DNA of 46,438 bases from positions 1 to 46,438 of the forward strand of contig CAMVLU010000001.1 of NCBI GenBank assembly GCA_947168405.1, given 5' to 3'. Each line of letters begins with the position of its first letter. The first letter of the stretch is position 1. A model generated the notes under the pieces. The model was not told the DNA's origin. It saw only the letters and a list, made by a program, of their open reading frames with translations, and searched no databases. Both the position numbers and the translations under genes were made by a program. The stretch is from an uncultured Clostridia bacterium. Lineage in GTDB: Bacteria; Bacillota_I; Bacilli_A; RF39; UBA660. Positions 6,841-33,958 of the stretch are shown here, piece after piece.

Positions 6841-7725
6841 TCATTCGTGAATATTTAATAATTCCATAATTCTATTAAAATCATTTAAATCTTGAAAATT
6901 TATCTCTATTTTACTTCCTCTAATACGAACTTTTGTTTCTAATCTATCACATAATAATTCTTGAATATATTTATATGTTTTATTTTCTTCCGTTTCTTTT
7001 CTAACTATTTTATTTCTTTTTTCAATTGTTTTATCTTGAGTTAACTCTTCTATTGCTGCTGTTGTTAAACCTTCATTTATAATTCTATCTGCCATTTCTT
7101 CTACTTTATTTACATCTTTTATTTTACTTAATGCTCTTGCATGTGTAGCAGATATTTTTTTATCAATTACTAGTTTTTTTACAGAATCAGGTAAATTCAT
7201 TAATCCTACCATATTAGTAACATAACTACGACTTTTTCCAATTCTTTCTGCAAGTTGTTCATGATTTAATCCTTTTGCATTCATTAAATTTTGATATGCC
7301 ATAGCTTCTTCTATAGGATTTAAATCTTCCCTTTGTAAATTCTCTAAAAGAGCTATTTCCATCATTTCTTCATCATTAAAATCACGTATAATTGCTGGAA
7401 TTGTATCACGTCCTGCTAAAGCACTTGCTTTAGCACGTCTTTCTCCAGCAACTATTTCATATCCTTTTATACTTCTTTTTACAATTATTGGTTGAAATAC
7501 CCCATGTTCTTTTATAGAACTTGCTAGTTCATTTAAAGCATTTTGATCAAATACTTTTCTTGGTTGATAAGGATTACTTCTTAATTCATTAATAGGTATT
7601 TGTTTAATTTCTTCTTTCGGAGTTTCATTTACTATTTTTTCTTCTAAAGTATCAAAATCTAATACTTCTTCTCCAAACAATTCTTCTAAACCTTTTCCTA
7701 ATGCTCTTCTTCTATTTGTTTCCAT
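6841..7725 (-). CDS. parB: Chromosome partitioning protein ParB/Spo0J
   Basis: ALGKGLEELF N-terminus, ParB box VAGERRAKAS, HTH (IGKSRSYVTNMVGL). Sits immediately downstream of soj. Confidence 0.9.
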   Translation of the reverse strand: METNRRRALGKGLEELFGEEVLDFDTLEEKIVNETPKEEIKQIPINELRSNPYQPRKVFDQNALNELASSIKEHGVFQPIIVKRSIKGYEIVAGERRAKASALAGRDTIPAIIRDFNDEEMMEIALLENLQREDLNPIEEAMAYQNLMNAKGLNHEQLAERIGKSRSYVTNMVGLMNLPDSVKKLVIDKKISATHARALSKIKDVNKVEEMADRIINEGLTTAAIEELTQDKTIEKRNKIVRKETEENKTYKYIQELLCDRLETKVRIRGSKIEINFQDLNDFNRIMELLNIHE

Positions 7726-8497
7726 TTCTCATAATCACTTCCTTTGCTAAATTTAAATATGCTTCTGATCCTTTACTCTTTGGATCATAGGCAATAATTG
7801 GTTTACCATGACTTGGTGCTTCTGCAAGTCTAATTAATCTAGGAATAATAGTATCATATACTTTATCCTTAAAATAACTTCTTATTTCTTCTATAACATC
7901 AAGTCCTAAATTAGACTTAGATAACATTGTAAGAAGTACTCCTTCTAAATCTAATGATGGATTTAAATTTTTTTGAGTTAACATAATTGTATTTAATAAT
8001 TGAGTAATTCCTTCTAAAGCAAAAAATTCACACTGAACAGGAATTAAACAAGAATTACTTGCTGTTAAAGCATTTGTTGTTATCATACCTAAACTTGGAG
8101 GACAATCGATTATAATATAATCATAATTATTTTTTATTTTTTCAAGTTTTTCTTTTAATTGAAATGCTTTTCTAAAACTTGTATCTTGTCTACTTCTATC
8201 CATAAATTCAATATCAATACCTGCAAGTTGAATAGTTGAAGGTAATATATCTAAATTACCAAATTCTGTTTTTATAATTGTTTCTTCTGGTTCACATACT
8301 CCTCTTAATAAATCGTATACACTTTTAGAAACATCACCTTTATTAATTCCAACACCTGTTGTTGCATTTCCTTGAGGATCTAAATCAATTAATAATATTT
8401 TTTTTCCAAGTCTTGCAAGGGATGCTGATAAATTTATACTAGTAGTTGTTTTTCCAACACCACCTTTTTGATTTACTAATGCAATTATTTTTCCCAT
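7712..8497 (-). CDS. soj: Chromosome partitioning ATPase ParA/Soj
   Basis: Deviant Walker A NQKGGVGKTTT. Start trimmed to ATG 8497 with AAAGGTGG upstream. Confidence 0.9.
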   Translation of the reverse strand: MGKIIALVNQKGGVGKTTTSINLSASLARLGKKILLIDLDPQGNATTGVGINKGDVSKSVYDLLRGVCEPEETIIKTEFGNLDILPSTIQLAGIDIEFMDRSRQDTSFRKAFQLKEKLEKIKNNYDYIIIDCPPSLGMITTNALTASNSCLIPVQCEFFALEGITQLLNTIMLTQKNLNPSLDLEGVLLTMLSKSNLGLDVIEEIRSYFKDKVYDTIIPRLIRLAEAPSHGKPIIAYDPKSKGSEAYLNLAKEVIMRNGNK

Positions 8498-8583
8498 GAT
8501 TACCACCTTTTCTAATACGTTGTCATATTTATTTTACCAAAAAATAAGAAAATATGGAAGAATTATTTAATCAAATAGAGCAA

Positions 8584-8607
8584 AAAACTGATTATAAAAT
8601 CAGTTTT
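8584..8607 (-). terminator. Intrinsic terminator of the noc-like gene
   Basis: On the minus strand: AAAACTGATT-TTAT-AATCAGTTTT followed by TT. The hairpin contains the TGA stop. Confidence 0.75.
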
Positions 8608-10837
8608 CTTCTTTTTTTATTTTTATAGTTATTTGATACATATCATCGAATTCGACTTCTTCTGTATCTATATCTATATGATTTTGTTTAATTCTATCAG
8701 TTGTTTTCTTTAATTCAAGAACTGCATCATGAACATTATGAATTGTAACTACTTCATCCAAACTTATATAATCTTGTTTTTCTTCCTCAGATTCAGTTGT
8801 TGAAATAGGTATTTCATTACTATCAATTACTTCAATATCAGGTATTGATGTGCTCTCATTTATTGGTGTTTCTATTTCTGTCTGAGGTACTTCTTCAACT
8901 GGCATATCTATTGACTTTTCAATTTGATTTTTTTCTTCAAGTGTTTGATTCAATTGAGTAGAATTTTCGATTGGTTGTGCAAAAATATTATTTTCATTTG
9001 GCATTTCTATTGGCTGTTCAAATTGATTTTTTTCTTCAATAGGTTGTTGATTTGGTGTTTCAATTGGTTGTGTATAATTATTATTTTCAACAGGCATTTC
9101 TACTGGTTTTTCAAATGAATTAACAGTTGTATCTATATGTTGCATTGCTTCTGGTTGATTCATTGGTTGATTATACATTGGAGGAGTCATTGGTGCAGGT
9201 TGAGCAGGCGTCATCTGATTTTCATTCATTTGAGGATTTCCATATTGACCAATTATATTTAAAGGTTGATTGAATAAATTTCCTCCATTTGGATTTTGGT
9301 AATAATTTGTTCCAGTTCCAAAATCAGGTATTCTATTGTCATTTTGTTTATTATAAGAGTTATAATTTTCAAAACTATTCATTGCATAATCATTATTAAC
9401 AGGTGGAACAAACGGTTGAGGTTGTTGAGCAGGCATTGGTTGTCCCATATCTAACGTATTGCCATACATGTTAGGTTGCTCCATTGACATTGATTGATTC
9501 ATATTTTGTTGATAATTTGAATTTTGATAAAAGCCATTCATTGGTTCTTGAGGCATATTATTTAATTCATTAAAATTACTCATTGGTTGATTCATTTGTG
9601 TTTGATAATTATTTATTCCATTATTCATTTCCATTGGTTGTTCATATAAATTTTGATTCAATGAATCAAAGTTCGATGAATAATTATTTGATGAAGTATT
9701 ATAATTAATTGGTTCGGGATTACTGTTTATTGGTGTTCCAAAATTCATTGAGTTAATGCTATTAAAATTATTATTTGAGATATTATTTTGTGAATTTAAA
9801 TTTATATCATCATCAAAGTTGGGAAGAAATTGATTTTCTTTTTTAGGAAGATTATCTTCTCTAATTTGACTTATAAATAAATTATTATCATCGTTATTAT
9901 TCATCATGTTATTCATATTATTGTTTGATTGATTCATTCCTCCATCAAACATAGATCCTAATGATCCATTATTAGCAATATTCATTCCATTATTACCATT
10001 ATCAGGAATTGATTGATTATTAAATGAATTATTATCGTTAAAATCTCCATAATCATAACTATTAGCTGGATCTTCTCCTATAGGAGATGGCATATTATTA
10101 AAATTATTAGGAATATTATTAAACATATTATTTCCTACACCACTTTGATAATCATTTAATCCCATTCCCCCAAAATTAGATCTATTATTCATATTACTCT
10201 CCTTATCCTCTTCTTCATTATTTTTTTCTTTTTCTTCCTTATATTTTTTTATTTCTTTATCAAGTTCTCTTACAGTTAATCTTTCTTTTTTAATTCTATC
10301 TAAAAACATTAACTGATCTTTCTTATCCTTTATTGTTAATAAACTTCTTGCATGTCTTTCTGATATTTGATTTTTTACTAATGCATCTTGAACTTCTTCA
10401 GGAAGACTTAATAACCTTAATTTATTTGCAACCATTGGTTGACTTCTACCCATTGTTTTAGCTAATTCATCTTGCGTAATATTATCAAGTTGTAAAATTC
10501 TTTTATATGTCTTTGCTTCTTCTATAGCTGTTAAATTTTTTCTTTGCAAATTCTCAAGTAATGATAATTTAGCACTTTCTTTATCATCTATATCCCTTAT
10601 TATTGCAGGGATTGTAGTTAATCCTGCAAGAGAAGAGGCTTTTGTTCTTCTTTCTCCAGCAATAAGCTCATACTTATCTCCAAGTTTTCTAACTATAATT
10701 GGTTGAATAACTCCGTGTTCTTTAATTGACTTTGCTAAATCTTCCAAGCTTTCTTCATCAAATCTTTCTCTTGGTTGAAAACGATTTGGGATAATATCTT
10801 CAATTTTAATTAATTGTATTCTATTTTCATCAATCAT
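8600..10837 (-). CDS. noc: Noc-type ParB-family protein with a giant N/Q/M/P-rich low-complexity insertion (745 aa)
   Basis: N-terminal 200 aa is ParB/Noc-like (IPNRFQPR, IAGERRTKAS, RSQPMVANKLRLLSLPEEVQ, ISERHARSLL). It occupies the rsmG-soj position where noc sits in Bacilli. The C-terminal end (EEVEFDDMYQITIKIKK) resembles the Noc C-terminus as I recall it. Confidence 0.75.
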   Translation of the reverse strand: MIDENRIQLIKIEDIIPNRFQPRERFDEESLEDLAKSIKEHGVIQPIIVRKLGDKYELIAGERRTKASSLAGLTTIPAIIRDIDDKESAKLSLLENLQRKNLTAIEEAKTYKRILQLDNITQDELAKTMGRSQPMVANKLRLLSLPEEVQDALVKNQISERHARSLLTIKDKKDQLMFLDRIKKERLTVRELDKEIKKYKEEKEKNNEEEDKESNMNNRSNFGGMGLNDYQSGVGNNMFNNIPNNFNNMPSPIGEDPANSYDYGDFNDNNSFNNQSIPDNGNNGMNIANNGSLGSMFDGGMNQSNNNMNNMMNNNDDNNLFISQIREDNLPKKENQFLPNFDDDINLNSQNNISNNNFNSINSMNFGTPINSNPEPINYNTSSNNYSSNFDSLNQNLYEQPMEMNNGINNYQTQMNQPMSNFNELNNMPQEPMNGFYQNSNYQQNMNQSMSMEQPNMYGNTLDMGQPMPAQQPQPFVPPVNNDYAMNSFENYNSYNKQNDNRIPDFGTGTNYYQNPNGGNLFNQPLNIIGQYGNPQMNENQMTPAQPAPMTPPMYNQPMNQPEAMQHIDTTVNSFEKPVEMPVENNNYTQPIETPNQQPIEEKNQFEQPIEMPNENNIFAQPIENSTQLNQTLEEKNQIEKSIDMPVEEVPQTEIETPINESTSIPDIEVIDSNEIPISTTESEEEKQDYISLDEVVTIHNVHDAVLELKKTTDRIKQNHIDIDTEEVEFDDMYQITIKIKKEEN
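8901..9118. repeat. Three tandem ~93-99-bp coding repeats inside the noc-like gene
   Basis: GGCAT(A/T)TCTA(T/C)TG...TTCAA(A/T)TGA units start at 8901, 9000 and 9093. They encode FE(K/Q)P(V/I)EMP(V/N)EN...QPIE...EEKNQ repeats. Confidence 0.8.
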
Positions 10838-10885
10838 ATTTATCCCACTTCCTTTTTATTTTATATTTCCCTTTATTATATTTAC

Positions 10886-10916
10886 ATTATATCACATTTT
10901 TTAAAAATACAAAGAT
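10886..10916 (-). promoter_or_regulatory. Candidate extended -10 promoter for the noc-like gene
   Basis: Minus strand reads TTGTAT-15 nt-TGATATAAT. TATAAT is the rc of 10886-10891 and the TG is the rc of 10893-10894. Confidence 0.45.
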
Positions 10917-10951
10917 TTTTTTTGTTTTTTGTTGAAAAATATAATTTCCCA

Positions 10952-10988
10952 CGAAAAAAAGAAGTTTTTATTTCTTAACTTCTTTCTT
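10952..10988 (-). terminator. Candidate intrinsic terminator after rsmG
   Basis: Minus strand AAGAAAGAAGTT-loop-AACTTCTTTTTT (11 of 12 pairs) running into a T tract. Overlaps the rsmG stop. Confidence 0.5.
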
Positions 10989-11675
10989 AATTTTACTATA
11001 TTCTCTTGGATATATATTTGGTGTTTTATTTATTTTTTTTATTATAATAATATTTCTTTGACTAAATTCAAATGGTAAATTAAAATTATAAATATTTTCT
11101 ATTTTTCCATTTAATTTACTAATAATATCTTTTGATTCTTCTAATTCAAAATCAATATTTCCCTTCATAGCAATTAAGTATCCATTTACTTTGACTGAAG
11201 AAAAAGTTATTTCTGATAAAATTCTTAAATGAGCAACTGCTCGAGATACAACTATATCATATTCTTCAGGGTGTTTTTTAGAATATTCTTCACTTCTAGA
11301 ACATATAGTTTCTATATCTTTTAATTCTAATTCTTTTATTACTTCATTTAAATAATTTATTCTTTTATTTAATGAATCGAGTAGGGTAATTTTTAAATTA
11401 GGAAATACTATTTTTAATACTATTCCAGGAAATCCTGCTCCTGTTCCTACATCTAATACTTTTAAATCTTTTGTTAAGTCAATCGCTTTTATTAAGGTTA
11501 AGCTATCATAAAAGTGTTTTAAAAATACATCTTCTTCTTTAACAATAGTAGTTAAATTAATTTTCTCATTCCAACTTATTAATAATTTATAAAATTTATC
11601 TAGTTGATTTAATTGTTTTTCTGTTAAATTAATATTTAATTTAGATAATTCTTCTAAAAATTCTTTTTTATTCAT
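10968..11675 (-). CDS. rsmG: 16S rRNA (guanine527-N7)-methyltransferase RsmG (GidB)
   Basis: SAM motif LDVGTGAGFPGIVLKI. Conserved position downstream of mnmG. Confidence 0.92.
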   Translation of the reverse strand: MNKKEFLEELSKLNINLTEKQLNQLDKFYKLLISWNEKINLTTIVKEEDVFLKHFYDSLTLIKAIDLTKDLKVLDVGTGAGFPGIVLKIVFPNLKITLLDSLNKRINYLNEVIKELELKDIETICSRSEEYSKKHPEEYDIVVSRAVAHLRILSEITFSSVKVNGYLIAMKGNIDFELEESKDIISKLNGKIENIYNFNLPFEFSQRNIIIIKKINKTPNIYPREYSKIKKEVKK

Positions 11676-13531: not shown

Positions 13532-13969
13532 TCACTTCCTTTTGTTTTTATTATCTTTTTCTTTAATCTTCTTTAAATATTTAAAGCATTTTGTTCGGTA
13601 ATCATTTAATATTAAATCTACTTTTATTTCTTCTAATTCATCTCTTGTTCCAATTCTTCTTATACTTTCAATTATTCTTTCTCTTTCTGTTATTAAATAT
13701 TCAATAGTTTTTTCTAATTCAAATAAATTTAAATTAATTACTTCCTCTTCATTAACCATCCAATGTTGATTAGTTATAAACTCAAATGACAAATTATCAG
13801 AAATATTATAAAATTTTTCTAAATCTTTTTTTTCTCCTAAATTCACTAATTCTTTCATATTATCAGGCATAGGTATTTCTAATTTTTTTATTGCTTCTAA
13901 TTCTATTCCTTGAATTTGGTAACTTCTTTCTATTTTTCCTTCTTTTTCTCTTGAATCTAATATTCTCAT
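13532..13969 (-). CDS. Hypothetical charged 145-aa protein inserted between mnmE and mnmG
   Basis: ORF track 13532..13987. ATG at 13969 lies 4 nt after the mnmE TGA and is preceded by GGAAGTGA. The mnmG ATG follows 4 nt after its stop. No recognisable motif. Confidence 0.6.
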   Translation of the reverse strand: MRILDSREKEGKIERSYQIQGIELEAIKKLEIPMPDNMKELVNLGEKKDLEKFYNISDNLSFEFITNQHWMVNEEEVINLNLFELEKTIEYLITERERIIESIRRIGTRDELEEIKVDLILNDYRTKCFKYLKKIKEKDNKNKRK

Positions 13970-13973
13970 ACAA

Positions 13974-15338
13974 TCACTTCCCAACACAAAAATTCTTAAA
14001 TAAATTATCTAATAATTCTTCTTCATATGATTCTCCAATTATTAGACCTAATGTATTCCATATTTCTTTTAAATCTATTTCTAACATATCAAGTTCATTA
14101 TTATCATCCAATTCTTTTTCTAATTCTAATAATAAATTGTAACTTTTCTTTATTTCATTTATTTGTCTTAAATTAGTTATATATGTAAAGTCACTATTAA
14201 GTATTTTATCAAAATGAAATAACTCTTTTATTTTATTTTTAACTTTATCTATTTCTTTATTATCAACAGTATTAATTGATATTATATTATTTTTATCTAT
14301 ATTATCAAAAAAATCTTCTATATTTAATTTTGTTTCTAAATCATTTTTATTAATGATAAAAATTGTCGGTTTAGAACACTTTTTTATCAATTCTTTATCT
14401 TCTTCTGTTAATTCTTCATTGTTATTTAAAACCATTAATATTAAATTAGCATTATTCATAGCTTCAATACTTTTATTAACACCAATTTTTTCTACAATAT
14501 CTTCTGTTTCTCTTATTCCCGCTGTATCTATTAAATTAATTTTAATTCCATCTATTATAATTGTTCCTTCAACGATATCTCTTGTTGTTCCTGGAATATT
14601 TGTAACAATAGCTTTTTCATTATCTAATAATTTATTAAGTAAACTACTTTTACCAACATTTGGTCTTCCAACGATAGCAACATTTATTCCTTGATATAAA
14701 ATATGTGTATTTTCATAATCATCTATTATTTTTTTTAATTCTTCTTTTATGATTGGAACATTATTTTTTATATCATCAATAGTTACTTCATATATGTCCA
14801 AGTACTCTGGATAATCTATATTTACTTCAATATTACTAATTATTTTAATAATTTTTTCTCTTAACTCTTTTATTAAATTACTTAAATTACCATTTATTCC
14901 ATTTATAGCAACTTTTCTTTCTAGTTCTGTTTCTGAATTTATTAAATCTGATACAGCTTCTGCTTCTACTAAATCTATTCTTCCATTTAAAAAAGCTCTT
15001 TTTGTAAATTCTCCAGGTTCTGCAATTCGACAACCATTTTGTATTAATAATTCTAATACTTTATTAGTAGTAGCAATTCCTCCATGACAATTAATTTCTA
15101 CAACATCTTCAACTGTATATGTTTTAGGACTTTTCATAATACTTACTAATACTTCATCTATTATTTCTGAATTATTAATAATATGTCCATAATGAATTGT
15201 ATGACTAGGAACATTTTCTAAATTACATCCTTTAAATATTTTATTAACAATAGAAATACTATCTTTACCACTTACTCTTATAATAGAAATTGCTCCAACT
15301 CCTAAAGCAGTTGCAATACTAACTATAGTATCATCCAT
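13974..15338 (-). CDS. mnmE: tRNA modification GTPase MnmE (TrmE)
   Basis: G-domain GRPNVGKSSLLN and DTAGIR. C-terminal FCVGK motif directly before the TGA stop. Confidence 0.95.
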   Translation of the reverse strand: MDDTIVSIATALGVGAISIIRVSGKDSISIVNKIFKGCNLENVPSHTIHYGHIINNSEIIDEVLVSIMKSPKTYTVEDVVEINCHGGIATTNKVLELLIQNGCRIAEPGEFTKRAFLNGRIDLVEAEAVSDLINSETELERKVAINGINGNLSNLIKELREKIIKIISNIEVNIDYPEYLDIYEVTIDDIKNNVPIIKEELKKIIDDYENTHILYQGINVAIVGRPNVGKSSLLNKLLDNEKAIVTNIPGTTRDIVEGTIIIDGIKINLIDTAGIRETEDIVEKIGVNKSIEAMNNANLILMVLNNNEELTEEDKELIKKCSKPTIFIINKNDLETKLNIEDFFDNIDKNNIISINTVDNKEIDKVKNKIKELFHFDKILNSDFTYITNLRQINEIKKSYNLLLELEKELDDNNELDMLEIDLKEIWNTLGLIIGESYEEELLDNLFKNFCVGK

Positions 15339-15376: not shown

Positions 15377-15415
15377 AAATATAACTATGTCACATTTTTT
15401 AACATAGTTATATTT
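15377..15415 (-). terminator. Intrinsic terminator after the nucleotidyltransferase-like gene
   Basis: Perfect 14-bp stem AAATATAACTATGT / ACATAGTTATATTT with 11-nt loop, followed on the minus strand by TTGTGTT. A TGTTATAAT extended -10 for mnmE lies at 15364-15372 (rc). Confidence 0.75.
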
Positions 15416-16307
15416 TCATTAATTTTTTTTCTTCTTTTTTAGGAAATAAATTATCTAAATGATTTATATATAGTTTAAATAATTCAAGTAAACTAAGTGT
15501 TTCTTTTAAAGGATTAGCAAATATTGCTTTTAACATAGATTCACTTCTAGTAAATAATCCTTGTAATAAAAATAAAGTATTTTCATTTATATTTGCTTGT
15601 CCTAATAATCTAATACAAAAAATTACTTTATCTTCAGGAATATCATAATTATTCATTTTACAATAATCCATTAAATTATCAATAAACTTATTAACTAAAG
15701 AAAAACATATTTCTATTTTTTCATACTCTTTTAAAGGAATAATATAATACTTAAGCTCACTTTCTTCTCTTAAAATACTCCATGCTAAATATCTTTTTTC
15801 TTGATTTCTTAACATATCAATACAATAATTTAGTCCTTCATATCCATTTACAATATCATCTATTTCAAAATCTATATCTTTATATTGTTTTAAGGTATCT
15901 TTACCATATATTATTCTATATCTATTTCCATATTGATATTTATGGGTTAAAGGTAAATTATCCATTAAATTTTTATCATATAAAATTGCATGTATTAAGA
16001 TATTTTTTTTAGTATGTGATATTTTATTATTAATAGGCCCAATTAAACTAGAACAGCCTACTTCTATATTTTCATTTGTTAGATTTTTAGATAAATTTTC
16101 TAAAAACTTTTCAAAGTTAATTATTTTTATAGCATTTACTTCTTTACATATTATCCTGATATCATATTCATTATCCATATTATCTTGATAATCATCTTTA
16201 GCCATTGATCCTACAACAAATATAGTTTCCATATCCATGTCTGATAAAAAATACTTTAAAAATTCATTATCAATTCTTTTTGTTATTTGTTTTAATTCAT
16301 TTGTCAT
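15408..16307 (-). CDS. Pol-beta-superfamily nucleotidyltransferase-like protein (motif reminiscent of ANT(6)/AadK-type adenylyltransferases)
   Basis: VVGS-x12-EYDIRI fits hG[GS]-x9-13-[DE]h[DE]h. From memory it resembles LEGS...DNFQDYDISY of AadK, and the ~300 aa length is similar. Start set to ATG 16307, with GGAGG 7 nt upstream. Confidence 0.4.
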   Translation of the reverse strand: MTNELKQITKRIDNEFLKYFLSDMDMETIFVVGSMAKDDYQDNMDNEYDIRIICKEVNAIKIINFEKFLENLSKNLTNENIEVGCSSLIGPINNKISHTKKNILIHAILYDKNLMDNLPLTHKYQYGNRYRIIYGKDTLKQYKDIDFEIDDIVNGYEGLNYCIDMLRNQEKRYLAWSILREESELKYYIIPLKEYEKIEICFSLVNKFIDNLMDYCKMNNYDIPEDKVIFCIRLLGQANINENTLFLLQGLFTRSESMLKAIFANPLKETLSLLELFKLYINHLDNLFPKKEEKKLMKI

Positions 16308-16373
16308 TTTTTGTGCCTCCAAAAGACATTATAGATAATAAATTTGTCGAAATATGTCGATTTTTGTAAAAGA

Positions 16374-16405
16374 AAAGTAATTAATCTTTTTTGATTAATT
16401 ACTTT
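16374..16405 (-). terminator. Intrinsic terminator after the 243-aa membrane protein gene
   Basis: Perfect 13-bp stem AAAGTAATTAATC / GATTAATTACTTT with a 6-nt loop, followed on the minus strand by TCTTTT. Confidence 0.8.
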
Positions 16406-17135
16406 AATTAGTTTTTTCTTCTACGCATAAATTACTATATTCATTTATAAAATCTTTTACTTTATAAATACTGTTTAGATACTCATATATTACTTTGTCT
16501 TTTTCTAACTTTATTTCATATCTACTTTGAATATCTTCATTTTCGTGTGCCTGTATTTGTTCTTTATATTTATCTATTGAAGTTGTAAAACCTTCGGGCC
16601 CTCCACATGTTGCAATAGCTAAATTATCCAATCGAATAAAATCTGCATTATGTTCATATTTTGAATTATATCCAGATGCATATAATCTACCACCACTCAT
16701 TTCTAAATATGAGTACGACATGTTAGGATCATTTTCTGAATTTATTTCTTTTCCTTCTAAATTATAAAAATTATATTTAAATCCATATTGTCCGCCTGTA
16801 TGTGCAATAATTATTAAATTATTTGTACTATAAAGAGTAACTAAAGATTTATCTATTTCCTTTTCATTTAAATAATATTTATTATGTTCTCTTTTTATCT
16901 TATTTCCTTTTACTTCTTTTTCTTCTCCTTCTTGTAATTCATATTTGATTAATTCTGTAAATATTCCTTGAGTTGTTTCTGTAGTTTCAGCATTATTATT
17001 TTCATTAGATTGAGATTTCTTTTCTCCTACATATGTCATTTTAAACATAAAGTAAAATATTGCTACTAAACATATTATTAAAAATATTATTATTCCAACC
17101 ATTAATCCCTTATTATTCTTTTTTTCTTCTTCCAT
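16404..17135 (-). CDS. Hypothetical N-terminally membrane-anchored protein (243 aa)
   Basis: Single N-terminal TM (LMVGIIIFLIICLVAIFYFMF), then a soluble domain with no motif I recognise. Has its own TGATATAAT extended -10 (rc of 17157-17165) and its own terminator. Confidence 0.6.
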   Translation of the reverse strand: MEEEKKNNKGLMVGIIIFLIICLVAIFYFMFKMTYVGEKKSQSNENNNAETTETTQGIFTELIKYELQEGEEKEVKGNKIKREHNKYYLNEKEIDKSLVTLYSTNNLIIIAHTGGQYGFKYNFYNLEGKEINSENDPNMSYSYLEMSGGRLYASGYNSKYEHNADFIRLDNLAIATCGGPEGFTTSIDKYKEQIQAHENEDIQSRYEIKLEKDKVIYEYLNSIYKVKDFINEYSNLCVEEKTN

Positions 17136-19363: not shown

Positions 19364-19393
19364 ATTATAATAGGAAAGTAGGGGAAAAGTCAA
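19364..19393 (-). promoter_or_regulatory. rpmH promoter (TTGACT-18-TATAAT)
   Basis: TTGACT is the rc of 19388-19393 and TATAAT the rc of 19364-19369. Overlaps the stop of the upstream membrane protein gene. Confidence 0.6.
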
Positions 19394-20409
19394 TTAATTT
19401 TTGATTTATTTTTCCCATCCTTTATGATTTCTTTTACTTTTTTCTTATTTTCTTTACTATATCCTATTAATACTTCTTCATTTTTTTCTTTAATTTTATT
19501 TTCTATTTCTTCTAATATTTCATCTTTATTATCTTCAAGTGATCTTGTTTTAGCAACAGCATAAACTTTATTATTAATTGTTGTTACTTTTAAATATTTA
19601 TTAACAAGTAATCCATTATATGTTCTATCATATGGATATATCCATAAAATATCTGAATAAGGAACTATTACAATATTATCATCAAAATCTACTAAATAGT
19701 CTTTTAACAAATAAAACTTCATATCTTGATATTCACTTTCAACTATTTGAGATAATTCTGTATCTATTTTTATTAATAATTCAGGATTTAATTCATTCAT
19801 TGTTTTTTTATTTTTTATTACCTTTATTATATATATAACTATAAATAATAGAGATAATATTCCTAATATTAATGTTCCAATACAATATAATGTTGAATCA
19901 TTTATTTTTGTTTTCATATCTAAATAATATTCTCCAACATTTTCTTTAAAATTATCTTTTGTTAAATATTCATATTTCATAAATTCATTATAAGAATCTA
20001 TTGCTTGTTTTTTTAAATCATATGTTATAGGACGAGATATTCCTGTTATTCTAATTGGAGTTTCATTTATACTATCTATATTTAATTTTTTATAAGTATC
20101 ATTATTCATATAAACTATATATAAATGATTATCTTTATCCATAACTAGATAATATTTAACATCTTCTTCTTTACCATTTACCTCATATACTGCAAATAAA
20201 TGTGGTTTAATACTTACATCTATATATGAATAAGTATTTTCATTTTTTGCTTCTAATATATTTATAGGGTCAGGTATTTTCTTTTTACTATTCTCTAAAC
20301 CTAAATATAATAACACTAAACTCCCTAATAAAAAAATTATTCCTATTACTAATAATATATTAATTTTTCTTTTATTCTTTTTAAATACTTCTGCATTTGT
20401 ACTAATCAT
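19390..20409 (-). CDS. Hypothetical two-TM membrane protein located between oriC and rpmH
   Basis: TM1 ILLVIGIIFLLGSLVLLYLGL, a ~130-aa loop, TM2 LYCIGTLILGILSLLFIVIYII, then a C-terminal beta-rich domain. Start set to ATG 20409, with AAGGAAG upstream. Confidence 0.6.
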   Translation of the reverse strand: MISTNAEVFKKNKRKINILLVIGIIFLLGSLVLLYLGLENSKKKIPDPINILEAKNENTYSYIDVSIKPHLFAVYEVNGKEEDVKYYLVMDKDNHLYIVYMNNDTYKKLNIDSINETPIRITGISRPITYDLKKQAIDSYNEFMKYEYLTKDNFKENVGEYYLDMKTKINDSTLYCIGTLILGILSLLFIVIYIIKVIKNKKTMNELNPELLIKIDTELSQIVESEYQDMKFYLLKDYLVDFDDNIVIVPYSDILWIYPYDRTYNGLLVNKYLKVTTINNKVYAVAKTRSLEDNKDEILEEIENKIKEKNEEVLIGYSKENKKKVKEIIKDGKNKSKIN

Positions 20410-20502
20410 AATTATACTTCCTTTGTTTATAAATATTATCATATTTATTAATTATTGTAAAATTTAATCTTGTTTACACTTTAAAAAAAATTTTTTTATA
20501 AG

Positions 20503-20784: not shown

Positions 20785-22146
20785 ATGAGCAATGACCAAT
20801 TATGGAGCAAGTTCTTAGAAAATATTCAAAGTAATGTCAATTCTATGGTTTATACAACATGGTTTAGTAAAATAAAATTACTATCTATAGAAGAAAATAA
20901 AATTACTTTAGTCGTTCCTTTAGAAATTCATCGAAAAAGAATTCAAGAGACTTATCATAATTTGATAATAAATGTTTTAGAAAAAATTACTAATAAAATG
21001 TATGAAATAGATGTTTTGTTAGAAGAAGAATTAAAGAAAAAAGAAGAACCAAAAATTGTTCAAGAACAATTATTTGTTGAAACAACACCAAAGTTTAATC
21101 ACAAATCTAACTTAAATCCTAATTATACATTTGAAACATTTATTGTAGGAAATAGTAATAAACTTGCACATGCTGCGGCTTTTGCAGTCGCAGAGTCACC
21201 AGGTTTAACATATAATCCATTATTTATATATGGAAATTCAGGACTTGGGAAAACACATTTAATGCAAGCAATTGGTAATTATATTGAAAAAAATAGTCAA
21301 AAACGAGTTTTATATGTTACCAGTGAACAATTTATATCTGATTTTTCAGGAATTGGAAGAAAAGATGAGAATGATTCATCATATAGCTATGTTGATTATT
21401 TTAAAGATAAGTATCGTAATATAGATGTATTAATAATTGATGATATTCAATTTCTTGCTGGACCTAAAACTCAACAAGAATTCTTTCATACTTTTAATAC
21501 TTTATATGACGATAAAAAACAGATTATTATTTCATCAGATAGATCACCAAACGACTTAAAGTTATTAGAAGATAGACTTAGAACTAGATTTTGTTGGGGA
21601 TTAACAGTTGATATATATCCACCTGACATGGAATTAAGAATTAATATTTTAAAGAAAAAAATTGAGGGAAATAAAATTAATAAAGATATTCCAGAAGAAG
21701 TACTCGAATATATAGCATCTAATATGGCAAGTGATGTTAGACAACTTGAAGGAGCAATTACTAGACTTCTTGCATATTCAACAATTATGGGAGGAGCTGA
21801 TATAACTTTATCATTGGCTGTCGACGCTTTAAAAGACTTTATTAATAAAGGAACAAGTGAAAAAACAAATATATCAAGAGTTCAAAAGGTTGTTGCTGAT
21901 TATTTCCAAATATCTGTTGATGATTTAAAAGGAAAGAAAAGAAGTGCAAGTGTTGCTTTTCCAAGGCAAATAGCTATGTACTTATCTAGAGAAATATTAA
22001 ATGAGTCTTATCAAAGAATAGGATTAGAATTTGGAGGACGTGATCATTCAACCGTAATGAGTTCATGTGATAAAATAAGTGATAATATTAAAACAACACA
22101 AAGTTTAAGAGATACCGTGGAAAAAATAAAAGCAAACTTAACTTAA
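20785..22146 (+). CDS. dnaA: Chromosomal replication initiator protein DnaA
   Basis: AAA+ Walker A GNSGLGKTHLMQA and C-terminal DNA-binding helix (GGRDHSTVMSSCDKI). Flanked by DnaA boxes. Confidence 0.97.
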   Translation: MSNDQLWSKFLENIQSNVNSMVYTTWFSKIKLLSIEENKITLVVPLEIHRKRIQETYHNLIINVLEKITNKMYEIDVLLEEELKKKEEPKIVQEQLFVETTPKFNHKSNLNPNYTFETFIVGNSNKLAHAAAFAVAESPGLTYNPLFIYGNSGLGKTHLMQAIGNYIEKNSQKRVLYVTSEQFISDFSGIGRKDENDSSYSYVDYFKDKYRNIDVLIIDDIQFLAGPKTQQEFFHTFNTLYDDKKQIIISSDRSPNDLKLLEDRLRTRFCWGLTVDIYPPDMELRINILKKKIEGNKINKDIPEEVLEYIASNMASDVRQLEGAITRLLAYSTIMGGADITLSLAVDALKDFINKGTSEKTNISRVQKVVADYFQISVDDLKGKKRSASVAFPRQIAMYLSREILNESYQRIGLEFGGRDHSTVMSSCDKISDNIKTTQSLRDTVEKIKANLT

Positions 22147-23632: not shown

Positions 23633-24088
23633 GTGGAAATCGATAGCTATGAAATTAATAAAAATACATGTGCTGTATTAAATATTAATAATCAAGTATC
23701 TAAAATTATTGAAAAAGATAACGACTATTTATTAGAAAAAAAATCTTTTGAAGTAATGGAAGATAGTTGTGCATACTATGGAAGTACTTTTGAAGGAAGA
23801 ATTAAAGGAACGAAAAAAATGCTTGGTAGTAATTATAAATTACCAATTATAATTGAAGAAACAAATGATATTATCTTTTTTCCAACTAATGGAGCTAGTA
23901 ATGAATCATGTTCTTGGATTTCTTTAAATCAAGTTGATAAGTATGAAAACTATAAAGGTTATACTAAAGTTACTTTTATAGGAGGTAAAAGCATAATATT
24001 AAAAATGCCATATTCTTCTTTTGAAATGCAGTTATTAAGAGCATCTAGATTACAAATTTTATTATCTAAAAGAGTAGATATGGAATAA
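23633..24088 (+). CDS. comK: ComK-family competence transcription factor homologue
   Basis: From memory, alignable along its length with B. subtilis ComK: SYEINKNTCAVL vs SYEVNGATIAVL, KIIEKD identical, DSCAYYGSTFEGRIKGT vs RSCRFFGSSYAGRKAGT, IIFFPT vs IFLFPT, CSWIS vs CGWIS, YSSFEMQ vs YNSFENQ. GTG start with GGGGGTGA upstream. Confidence 0.75.
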   Translation: MEIDSYEINKNTCAVLNINNQVSKIIEKDNDYLLEKKSFEVMEDSCAYYGSTFEGRIKGTKKMLGSNYKLPIIIEETNDIIFFPTNGASNESCSWISLNQVDKYENYKGYTKVTFIGGKSIILKMPYSSFEMQLLRASRLQILLSKRVDME

Positions 24089-32302: not shown

Positions 32303-33958
32303 ATGGAATATCAAGCTTTATATAGAAAATATAGACCAACTAAGTTTTCTGATGTTGTTGATCAAGAAAGTATTTTAAAAATATTAACTAATTCTATAAA
32401 AGAAGGACATATTTCTCATGCATATTTATTTTCAGGACCAAGAGGTACTGGTAAAACAACCATTGCTAAATTGGTTGCTAAAACAGTTAATTGTTTAAAT
32501 TTAAAAGATGATTGTTCTGTCTGTATGGAATGTGAAAATTGTTTAGATATAAAAAATAATAGCCCTGATATTATAGAAATAGATGCTGCTAGTAACAATG
32601 GTGTTGATGAAATAAGAGATTTAAAAAGTAAAATAAATCTTGTTCCTAGTAAATTAAAATATAAAGTATATATTATAGATGAAGTACATATGTTATCAAT
32701 AAGTGCATTTAATGCTTTACTTAAAACCTTAGAAGAACCTCCTAGTCATGTTATCTTTATTTTAGCAACAACAGAGTTTTATAAAGTTCCTGAAACAATA
32801 GTATCAAGGTGCCAATGTTTAAATTTTTCAAGAATTAAAACAAGTAGTATTGAAAAAAGATTAAAAGAAATATCTAAAATAGAAAATATTAATATAGATG
32901 ATTCAGCACTTCATGCAATAGCAGAATATTCTAATGGAGGAATGCGTGATGCTTTAGGAATGTTAGATAAATTATCATCTTATAATTTAGATAAAATAAC
33001 AGAAGAAGATTTCTTACAAATCAATGGATTAATTTCTAAAAAAGATATAGATAATTTTTTAGAGTCTATTTTAAATAATGATAATAAGACGGTTATAGAA
33101 ACCATTAATATTTTTGAAGAAAAAGGCTATGACTTTTCTAAACTACTTGAAAAGATGATGATAGAATGTCGAGATTTAATGACAGATTATTTCTTGGGAA
33201 ATATGTATAAAGACATTGATGTAAAAAAAATATACTCTTTAATAATGTGTTTTAATGAAACTTATAATTTATTAAAAGAAGCATCTAATAGAAAAATAAT
33301 AGTTGAAGTAAATCTTCTTAAATTTATGAATTTTAAAGAAAATGATGAAACAAAATTACAAATTAAAGAAGAAAAACAAATTAACAAAGAAGATACAAAG
33401 CAAAAAGAAGAAATTTCCAGGGAAATAAAAAAAGAAGAAGATGTTCCTAAAAATGAAATTAAATATCAAGTAGATTTGGATGTTAAAAAAATAAGAATAG
33501 ATAATACATTTGCAATGGCTAGTAAAGTATTAAAAAATATGACAATGGAAAAATGGCAGAAGTTAGATGATTATTTAATTTCAAGTGATTATTCATATGT
33601 TGCAGGTATTTTAAAAGATTTAAATATAGGAGTAGTTAGCAATAAGAACATGATTTTAACATCTAAACATTTATCTATAATTGAAAAATGTTATCAAGAA
33701 TTTATAAAGATTGAAAAACTAATTAGTTTAATTATGGAGAATGATTATCAAGTTGTAATACTATCAGATGATGAATTTAAAGAAGAAGTAAAAAAATATA
33801 AAGAACATATGAATGATAGTAATTATTATGAATATAAAGAAGATAATAGACCTTTAGTAATATTTAATAACATTGAAAAAAAAGAAGAAGTAGGTTATAC
33901 TAGTTTAGTACAAAAAGCAATAGATGTTTTTGGACAAGAAAATATAGAAATAGAATAG
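32303..33958 (+). CDS. dnaX: DNA polymerase III subunit gamma/tau
   Basis: YRKYRPTKFSDVVDQ, Walker A GPRGTGKTT, zinc module CSVCMECENC, Walker B IIDEVHML, SRC motif. Confidence 0.95.
   Translation: MEYQALYRKYRPTKFSDVVDQESILKILTNSIKEGHISHAYLFSGPRGTGKTTIAKLVAKTVNCLNLKDDCSVCMECENCLDIKNNSPDIIEIDAASNNGVDEIRDLKSKINLVPSKLKYKVYIIDEVHMLSISAFNALLKTLEEPPSHVIFILATTEFYKVPETIVSRCQCLNFSRIKTSSIEKRLKEISKIENINIDDSALHAIAEYSNGGMRDALGMLDKLSSYNLDKITEEDFLQINGLISKKDIDNFLESILNNDNKTVIETINIFEEKGYDFSKLLEKMMIECRDLMTDYFLGNMYKDIDVKKIYSLIMCFNETYNLLKEASNRKIIVEVNLLKFMNFKENDETKLQIKEEKQINKEDTKQKEEISREIKKEEDVPKNEIKYQVDLDVKKIRIDNTFAMASKVLKNMTMEKWQKLDDYLISSDYSYVAGILKDLNIGVVSNKNMILTSKHLSIIEKCYQEFIKIEKLISLIMENDYQVVILSDDEFKEEVKKYKEHMNDSNYYEYKEDNRPLVIFNNIEKKEEVGYTSLVQKAIDVFGQENIEIE

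Follow-up and report, generated by a model that had tools for sequence, protein, structure and literature searches.

A Noc-like protein of uncultured gut Bacilli with a long, motif-bearing disordered linker and no membrane-targeting helix

The 46,438-nucleotide stretch of DNA analysed here (the window; contig CAMVLU010000001.1 of assembly GCA_947168405.1, uncultured Clostridia bacterium, GTDB lineage Bacillota_I; Bacilli_A; RF39; UBA660) carries at 8600-10837 on the minus strand a gene for a 745-residue ParB-family protein (open reading frame (ORF) list; stop codon 8600-8602). We identify this gene as the Noc orthologue of an uncultured gut and rumen Bacilli lineage of about 25 % G+C, because of its synteny, a tree split found in 100 of 100 bootstraps, its specificity residues Q-K-S-R and its Noc-type C-terminal domain. 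The protein consists of a CTP-binding domain with a helix-turn-helix (HTH) domain (residues 1-208), a disordered region of ~480 residues (209-694) and a C-terminal domain of 55 residues. It is a member of the Noc lineage that fails one defining feature, the membrane-targeting sequence (MTS), and its tether is a disordered domain bearing conserved motifs. Its mode of action probably differs from that of every Noc studied to date.

Folded domains, Noc orthology and the N-terminus

Pfam recognises the ParB N-terminal (CTP-binding) domain at residues 6-98 (10544-10822; PF02195, E 6.7e-35) and the ParB HTH DNA-binding domain at residues 100-200 (10238-10540; PF17762, E 3.6e-31); all coordinates within the gene refer to the minus strand. 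An earlier note on this DNA, made from the letters alone, had described residues 1 to about 200 in the same terms. The CTP motifs FQPR, GERR and ENLQR are invariant across an alignment of 63 family members, and AlphaFold2, run on the same alignment, folds residues 1-208 with a predicted local distance difference test score (pLDDT) of about 85-95. The C-terminal domain at residues 690-745 (YISL…DAVLELKKTTDRIKQN…TEEVEFDDMYQITIKIKK; 8603-8770) is, by homology, a Noc-type dimerisation domain. It is modelled as one helix (702-718) followed by two strands (723-729 and 734-740), with a pLDDT of about 85 over residues 700-742.

The top NCBIfam model for the protein is nucleoid_noc (TIGR04285; 282.5 bits, model positions 2-211). 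Deleting the linker extends the alignment to positions 2-255 at 291.7 bits, and the last 66 residues alone match positions 206-255 (E 7.6e-4). The best matches among solved structures are those of Geobacillus Noc (7NG0 and 7NFU, 202 bits). A profile of the C-terminal 62 residues retrieved true Noc C-termini in Jeotgalibacillus, Oceanobacillus, Pontibacillus and other Bacillaceae, and a tblastn search with the C-terminal domain reached 25 Bacillaceae noc loci, with L026 and L046 reading through to the Noc C-terminus. The match in Jeotgalibacillus soli is the end of a 284-residue, MTS-bearing (MMKTPFSRIFGLGEKD) Noc encoded between rsmG and soj; the last 42 residues of the window protein are 43 % identical to it (BLASTP, E 7e-9), and hhalign scores the pair of domains at 96.8 % (E 2.5e-10). 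The resemblance of the C-terminus to Noc, which the earlier note had proposed, is genuine and not spurious.

The gene order mnmG-rsmG-noc-soj-spo0J is common to the window, to the loci of 22 related metagenome-assembled genomes (MAGs) and to 26 Bacillaceae loci, and the sole difference across these syntenic noc loci is how far the N- and C-terminal matches lie apart. A neighbour-joining tree of the ~195-residue core places the proteins of the clade with Bacillaceae Noc, and the split between Noc and Spo0J has full bootstrap support. Four residues switch ParB from parS to the Noc-binding site (NBS), namely Q173, K179, K184 and R201 in Caulobacter numbering, and one permissive lysine, at 179 or 184, is enough for NBS specificity (PMC7383237). 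The corresponding residues here are Q133, K139, S144 and R161, so three of the four are of the NBS type (Noc Q-K-K-R; ParB R-x-x-G). The Q, K and R positions are invariant in the 63 family members, and serine at the third position is also seen in some MTS-bearing Bacillaceae Noc. The earlier note's placement of the gene as a Noc homologue in the canonical noc slot is thus borne out by gene order, tree, specificity residues and C-terminal homology alike.

The score against TIGR04285 stays below the curated cut-off of 315 bits, both for the native protein and after deletion of the linker, the similarity to Noc of B. subtilis (174.8 bits) and to its Spo0J (173.7 bits) is about equal, and relatives go at NCBI by the generic name “ParB/RepB/Spo0J family partition protein” only. 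These observations would also suit a partition protein of ParB type, either a second chromosomal one or one derived from a plasmid or phage, that lies beside soj-spo0J by chance. We consider such an origin highly improbable in view of the uniform bootstrap grouping with Noc, the Q-K-x-R residues, the Noc-type C-terminal domain and the conserved slot. In addition, the protein has no N-terminal ParA-stimulating basic peptide, unlike the adjacent Spo0J, which carries RRRALGKGLEELF.

The N-terminus is delimited by the DNA. The ATG at 10837 stands 15 residues ahead of IPNRFQPR and is backed by a ribosome-binding site, AGGAAGTGGG, at 10844-10853. Three-frame translation finds six sense codons and no start codon between this ATG and the nearest upstream in-frame stop, so that a longer N-terminus is impossible. 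PNRFQPR is thereby preceded by 16 residues in the window protein, compared with 34-44 in canonical Bacillaceae Noc (counted where PNRFQPR is recognisable, with over-long first start codons discounted). The 25 full-length proteins of the clade have only 14-20 residues ahead of PNRFQPR, again leaving over-long first start codons aside. An N-terminal F/L-[SNT]-[RK]-[ILF]-F motif, the signature of the MTS (for example PFSRIFG or LSRLFG), is present in all 27 Bacillaceae Noc; it occurs neither in the window protein nor in any of the 25 full-length clade proteins, nor in any of 52 shorter relatives. L024, a 5'-truncated fragment, was left out of this count.

In the AlphaFold2 model, strand β1 comprises residues 7-11, meaning that the protein begins at β1, and therefore helices α1 (the MTS) and α2 of Noc, about 20-26 residues, are absent. 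The earlier note was right about the position of the start and the absence of the membrane helix; the missing piece is shorter than the ~40 residues it had proposed. The window protein thus resembles the NΔ26 construct of Noc (PMC8429893), and the MTS is required for nucleoid occlusion by Noc (PMC8429893, PMC4331003). The helix may have been lost in the clade or gained in other Bacilli; both would fit the data. We also considered that the helix had moved into the linker and rejected this as unsupported, given that AlphaFold2 shows no helix in residues 216-694. The linker may stand in place of the membrane anchor, as the earlier note had proposed.

Taken against Noc of B. subtilis and Geobacillus thermoleovorans (7OL9, 7NFU, 7NG0, 6Y93), the window protein shares the slot, the CTP motifs, the HTH, the C-terminal domain and the place in the tree, and it differs in lacking α1 and α2 and in falling below the family cut-off. 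The linker is a further difference: in Bacillaceae Noc it has about 30 residues, in keeping with the few tens that the earlier note gave for an ordinary Noc, and is basic, whereas in the window protein it has ~480 and is acidic, N/Q-rich and motif-bearing.

The disordered linker and its family

Composition and structure prediction agree in assigning residues 209-694 (8756-10213) to an intrinsically disordered region. In the AlphaFold2 model, a check which the earlier note had proposed, residues 216-694 have a pLDDT below 50 and no secondary structure. Residues 205-690 are made up of N (22 %), P (9 %), Q (9 %), E (8 %), S (7 %) and M (7 %) to a large part, with just 2.7 % K and R and a net charge of -51. 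The N/Q content peaks at 42 per 100 residues, compared with at most 21 in the other ORFs of the window; these reach at most half the peak, so that the composition is not a proteome-wide habit. Residues 211-560 contain 35 % N/Q and 10 % aromatic residues (35 aromatics at a mean spacing of about 10) and carry little charge, and the last ~130 residues of the linker (561-690) are acidic and rich in P, E and I. Within this acidic part lies a 93-bp (31-codon) in-frame tandem repeat of 2.3 copies (Tandem Repeats Finder; 8894-9116), which looks like a recent local expansion because the stretch is absent from most relatives (gap fraction 0.46-0.91 at residues 601-660 of their alignment).

Across 49 relatives the composition is kept although the linker sequence diverges: N and Q together account for 23-38 %, aromatic residues for 7-13 %, K and R for 2-7 % and D and E for 10-19 %, and the net charge ranges from -27 to -86. 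Linker length among the long relatives is 278-559 residues. The criterion of Michelitsch and Weissman is reportedly at least 30 Q/N in 80 consecutive residues; this density is found in 47 of the 49 relatives, and the maximum in the window protein is 33.

The alignment of 53 non-redundant long relatives shows a linker that is mostly hypervariable and gappy, with four or five near-invariant islands inside. The first, M1 (NFGGMGLNDYQ, residues 221-231; 10145-10177), contains MGL.DY in all 53 proteins. It is closely followed by M1b (NNMFNNIPNNFNN, residues 236-248; 10094-10132), a NNMFNNIP…NNFNN island with an identity of 0.64-0.75 to the window protein. M2 (SLGSMFDG, residues 292-299; 9941-9964) was scored in the 51 of 53 relatives that fit its pattern and retains S in 49, L in 50, G in 48, S in 48, M in 49, F in 44 and D in 50 of these. 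In M3 (NLFISQIREDNLPKKENQFLPNFD, residues 319-342; 9812-9883), F.S.I…ENQFLPNF is nearly invariant, with F, P and N in 53/53; its family form is N-x-F-x-S-x-I-R-E-D … E-N-Q-F-L-P-N-F-D. M4 (NGGNLFNQPLNIIG, residues 517-530; 9248-9289) has the consensus NQG.LFNQPLNIVxVP, in which G, F and L are present in all 53 proteins and Q in 41. The order of M1 to M4 is identical in 22/22 genomes and in the 53 non-redundant proteins.

Few residues of the linker reach a pLDDT of 50 or more, and the motif cores belong to these. A search with linker residues 215-536 against 1.84e9 representative proteins returned family members and fragments only, and M1-M4 were not found outside the noc gene in any other frame or gene of the window and 26 loci. 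M4 resembles the consensus for binding to the β-clamp (DnaN), QxxLF (PMC12309361): it reads QG.LF in 41/53 relatives, and the window protein itself is off consensus with GGNLF, as are its nearest relatives with GG.LF or SG.LF. We regard this likeness as a lead. The disordered region appears to be under selection, because ORFs are intact, allele differences are in frame, composition is kept, the motifs are ordered, their cores reach a pLDDT of at least 50 and linker matches are confined to family members. The earlier note had called the insert prion-like; the length of ~480 residues, the N/Q-richness and the disorder all hold, and the description as plain prion-like filler does not, given at least four near-invariant ordered motifs and the acidic, P/E/I-rich end.

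The architecture also proved not to be special to one genome. A homologue search gave more than 100 clusters of 541-824 residues that share it and whose C-terminus is strikingly conserved. Genome contigs searched with the single protein yielded no relative, and the profile of the C-terminal domain then found them: 22 species-level representative MAGs with a G+C content of 23-28 %, from sheep rumen, cattle, roe deer, rabbit, chicken and the Hadza human gut, contain intact ORFs of 567-782 residues, which also answers the comparison of lengths suggested in the earlier note. Clusters of relatives are named “Bacilli bacterium”, plus one Candidatus (Allo)scybalousia intestinigallinarum (NCBI: Bacilli incertae sedis). 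The architecture thus marks out a clade of uncultured gut Bacilli, while relatives that are shorter and likewise lack the MTS occur widely. These shorter relatives, of 332-511 residues and also from uncultured Bacilli, have linkers of about 100-280 residues with other motifs. Some of them carry TPNFD[TI]DSS at the N-terminus or NFGLPGLE just after the HTH, the second a short likeness to M1. A more distant MAG (L023, 511 residues, locus 7400-7900; with the fragment L024) has five tandem 32-residue units (…DFMNFLNNYDATHPVNNPQPVETPNNNSNNN…), each of which contains FMNFLNNYD, a short likeness to FLPNFD of M3, so that a FL.N[FY]D-type motif is repeated. This array is a second, independent route of expanding the Noc linker. 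The window clade lies at the extreme of a broader group of Noc with long linkers and no MTS, at its N/Q-rich end. A literature search aimed at such long-linker Noc-like proteins found no paper, and the family appears to be undescribed so far.

Low-complexity DNA is prone to misassembly, and short Logan contigs do break within the region. Yet contigs from two bovine gut runs within a single study cover the greater part of the gene and are near-identical to it, with gaps only at 9674-9739 in the first run (X1) and at 8890-8999 and 9597-9644 in the second (X2). The alleles found in a sheep run and in another bovine run, which belong to two further studies, deviate by 60 and 30 nt or through small indels that compensate each other; all of these differences are multiples of three and keep the frame. 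With 22 independent species-level assemblies showing intact ORFs and the same order of domains and motifs, and with a highly conserved C-terminal domain that requires translation through the linker, the likelihood of an assembly artefact, a decaying gene or a pseudogene is next to negligible. As far as the sequence data allow, the gene is thus neither artefactual nor decaying; the two findings that by the earlier note's own account would have undone its proposal, a misassembled insert and frameshifted close relatives, were both looked for, and independent metagenomes and 22 intact MAGs speak against them.

An intact gene might still harbour a linker of little consequence, that is, a tolerated low-complexity tether grown by slippage and tandem duplication in an AT-rich, fast-evolving genome and attached to an otherwise ordinary clamp. 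The wide span of linker lengths in relatives (278-559 residues), the hypervariability of most of the sequence, the in-frame tandem repeats both here (93 bp x 2.3) and in L023 (32-residue unit x 5), the 30- and 60-nt allele differences between metagenomes and the A+T-rich codons of N, Q, M, F and Y are all in keeping with such neutral growth. It is nonetheless distinctly unlikely, as it fits poorly with a composition unique in the window (42 vs at most 21 N/Q per 100 residues), with four or five near-invariant motifs in fixed order in 53 non-redundant proteins, and with charge and aromatic content kept within narrow bounds. Other ParB-family linkers are invariably about 20 residues long (PMC8367383), and the long linker goes along with a missing MTS throughout the group.

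Possible mode of action

We favour, with confidence somewhat above even, a role of the linker as a multivalent adaptor, in which the motifs dock partners, the spacers condense clamps, and DNA is coupled indirectly to its targets. The Noc-like protein should still load on NBS-like sites and clamp, because the N-domain, the HTH and the C-terminal domain are kept; once loaded, this CTP-binding, NBS-type dimer would close around DNA in a CTP-dependent manner. Two acidic chains of ~480 residues per dimer would create a very large DNA compartment, and the chains would be repelled by the DNA. One partner protein or several would bind at the conserved motifs, with division, replication or membrane-associated factors as candidates, and the sticky N/Q and aromatic spacers would favour clustering or condensation of DNA-bound clamps. 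NBS-marked chromosomal DNA might thus be coupled to targets indirectly and not through a membrane-inserting helix of its own.

Several observations weigh against this adaptor role. The linker search named no partner: it returned no second protein class among the 1.84e9 representatives, and since only family members match the linker, it gives no clue to one. The conserved motifs may serve regulation in cis or self-association and not the docking of partners. A membrane-binding element may be hidden in the disordered region, or the link to the membrane may be indirect, and a second, MTS-bearing Noc may be encoded elsewhere in these genomes, of which ~16 kb around the gene were read per related genome and 46 kb in the window. 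The missed curated cut-off belongs here as well. Finally, NBS-like sites are scarce: the window has two, and the 307 kb of related loci have one, so that retained NBS binding is read from the specificity residues only.

Partner docking may also be dispensable. Homotypic phase separation, or an acidic brush, could keep the division machinery off the nucleoid with neither partner nor membrane, in line with the prion-like or condensate idea of the earlier note. The N/Q density found in 47/49 relatives (by the criterion quoted above) and the 35 regularly spaced aromatics in residues 211-560 would supply the stickers, and net charges of -27 to -86 would hold the chain off the DNA. Canonical Noc and ParB, moreover, already phase-separate under CTP control (PMC9606368). 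However, generic stickers need no near-invariant motifs of 10-25 residues in fixed order, and so strongly negative a net charge makes coacervation of the chain with itself less favourable unless a counter-ion partner is present; condensation or a brush as the sole principle is therefore unlikely in our judgement. The earlier note had called a condensate- or prion-like domain in place of a membrane anchor mechanistically novel; condensation alone would not be, since CTP-regulated phase separation is already a property of canonical B. subtilis Noc, which can also recruit FtsZ in vitro (PMC9606368).

A bolder version of the adaptor role is that a gut Bacilli lineage has rebuilt Noc into a membrane-independent, CTP-gated clamp, in which a motif scaffold of ~300-560 residues recruits partners to NBS regions and the spacers condense the complex. 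For example, QG.LF would lead to the sliding clamp, or MGLNDY and FLPNFD to divisome or membrane proteins. We regard this as tentative and rather doubtful; if true, the scaffold would represent a new coupling of chromosome state to division or replication.

Known systems offer partial parallels. Chromosomal ParB/Spo0J clamps have the same order of N-terminal domain, DNA-binding domain, linker and C-terminal domain, and DNA is held in the compartment between the latter two domains (PMC8367383). Their linker between DNA-binding and C-terminal domains bounds this DNA-entrapping compartment and is invariably about 20 residues long and lysine-rich, for reasons unknown (PMC8367383). The window linker is about 25 times longer and of opposite charge, and the protein differs from ParB/Spo0J further in having no ParA-stimulating peptide and in its Noc-type specificity residues.

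Other parallels lie outside the family. FtsZ combines a folded nucleotide-binding core with a disordered linker, which varies in length but keeps its composition, and with a conserved C-terminal docking peptide. The window protein is comparable in having a folded core, disorder of variable length and kept composition, and conserved short elements; it is unrelated to FtsZ, its linker joins two folded domains, and it has several internal motifs. In Escherichia coli, SlmA brings about nucleoid occlusion without a membrane anchor, through DNA-bound clusters that contact FtsZ directly. SlmA is a functional analogue, a TetR-family protein with no homology to Noc, and the contact with FtsZ pertains to SlmA. 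Compositional analogues are the eukaryotic Q/N-rich prion-like domains and the cohesive FG-type nucleoporin domains. The window linker is like these N/Q-rich and low in basic residues, with regularly spaced aromatics. It is unlike them in being bacterial, strongly acidic, tethered at both ends in a DNA clamp and endowed with long near-invariant motifs; such high acidity (net -51) and conserved motifs are not typical of a Q/N-rich prion-like domain.

Noc is the model of CTP-switched membrane binding, and a large clade of orthologues without the helix implies another working mode in the family. The group also constitutes a natural experiment on tether length, from 100 to 560 residues and with a charge opposite to that of the ParB linker. 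Its motifs, set in a disordered region, provide experimental handles for new partners of the chromosome-organising machinery. The carriers are common rumen and gut Bacilli, and the protein may bear on the placement of the division site in such cells; some related uncultured orders are predicted to be free of peptidoglycan (PMC10868615).

Genomic context and candidate binding sites

The upstream neighbour of the noc-lineage gene is rsmG (10968-11675, minus; Pfam GidB, TIGR00138), and an intergenic leader (10838-10967, minus) lies between rsmG and the start codon. Besides the ribosome-binding site, this leader holds a promoter-like TTAAAA-18-TATAAT at 10904-10875. A role of this element as promoter of the noc gene is only plausible, because such promoter-like matches are not enriched over shuffles in a consensus scan of this A+T-rich DNA. 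Downstream follow soj/parA (7712-8506, minus; Pfam AAA_31/CbiA) and the spo0J/parB paralogue (6841-7725, minus), which encodes 294 residues with a short linker and the N-terminal RRRALGKGLEELF peptide. In one bovine gut metatranscriptome, small contigs match the gene at 9336-9444 and 10234-10508; they are a weak hint of transcription, with DNA carry-over as an alternative source. An alternative genetic code for the window was considered and rejected, the long ORFs being intact under table 11.

Two NBS-like palindromes, tATTTCTTGGGAAATa at 33189-33202 and aATTTCCAGGGAAATa at 33413-33426, lie 224 bp apart within the ORF at 32303-33958, probably dnaX by position. They have two mismatches and one mismatch, respectively, to ATTTCCCGGGAAAT. 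The expected number in the window is 0.10, and two matches were reached in none of 100 shuffles. These palindromes are possible binding sites of the Noc-like protein.

Canonical parS (GTTTCACGTGAAAC, at most two mismatches) was found neither in the window nor in the 307 kb read near the origin in 22 related genomes (L001-L022); 405 kb of Bacillaceae loci contain 52 canonical matches. A de novo search for shared perfect palindromes returned A+T-only chance words, with no clade-specific parS or NBS definable from them. The Spo0J of the clade has R-M-N-T at the four specificity positions, T taking the place of the usual ParB residue G201, and the centromere sequence of the clade has probably diverged.

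The cumulative GC skew of the window reaches its minimum at ~20.4-20.8 kb, where gene orientation also flips, between a DUF6709 gene (19390-20442, minus) and an ORF at 20785 (plus) that is taken to be dnaA by its position. This is likely the replication origin. A ComK-family competence regulator (23633-24088, plus; PF06338, E 2.9e-39) is encoded in this origin region of a small low-GC gut bacterium, flanked by candidates for dnaN and recF, so named by their position after dnaA.

Three ORFs without a Pfam match, of 151, 304 and 243 residues (13532-13987, 15408-16322 and 16404-17135, all minus), are interleaved among jag-mnmE-mnmG, and the first of them, placed between mnmE and mnmG, overlaps mnmE at its end. 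Between mfd and metG, a stretch at 42248-44446 (plus) encodes a protein with a KilA-N domain (42248-43120) and, after it, two small ORFs, of which one has no Pfam match. It may be the remnant of a mobile element, and it includes the lowest G+C content of the window (0.16 at 43-44 kb). A BspA-type leucine-rich repeat protein (PF13306) of 740 residues, likely a surface or host-interaction protein, is encoded at the window's edge (23-2245, minus).

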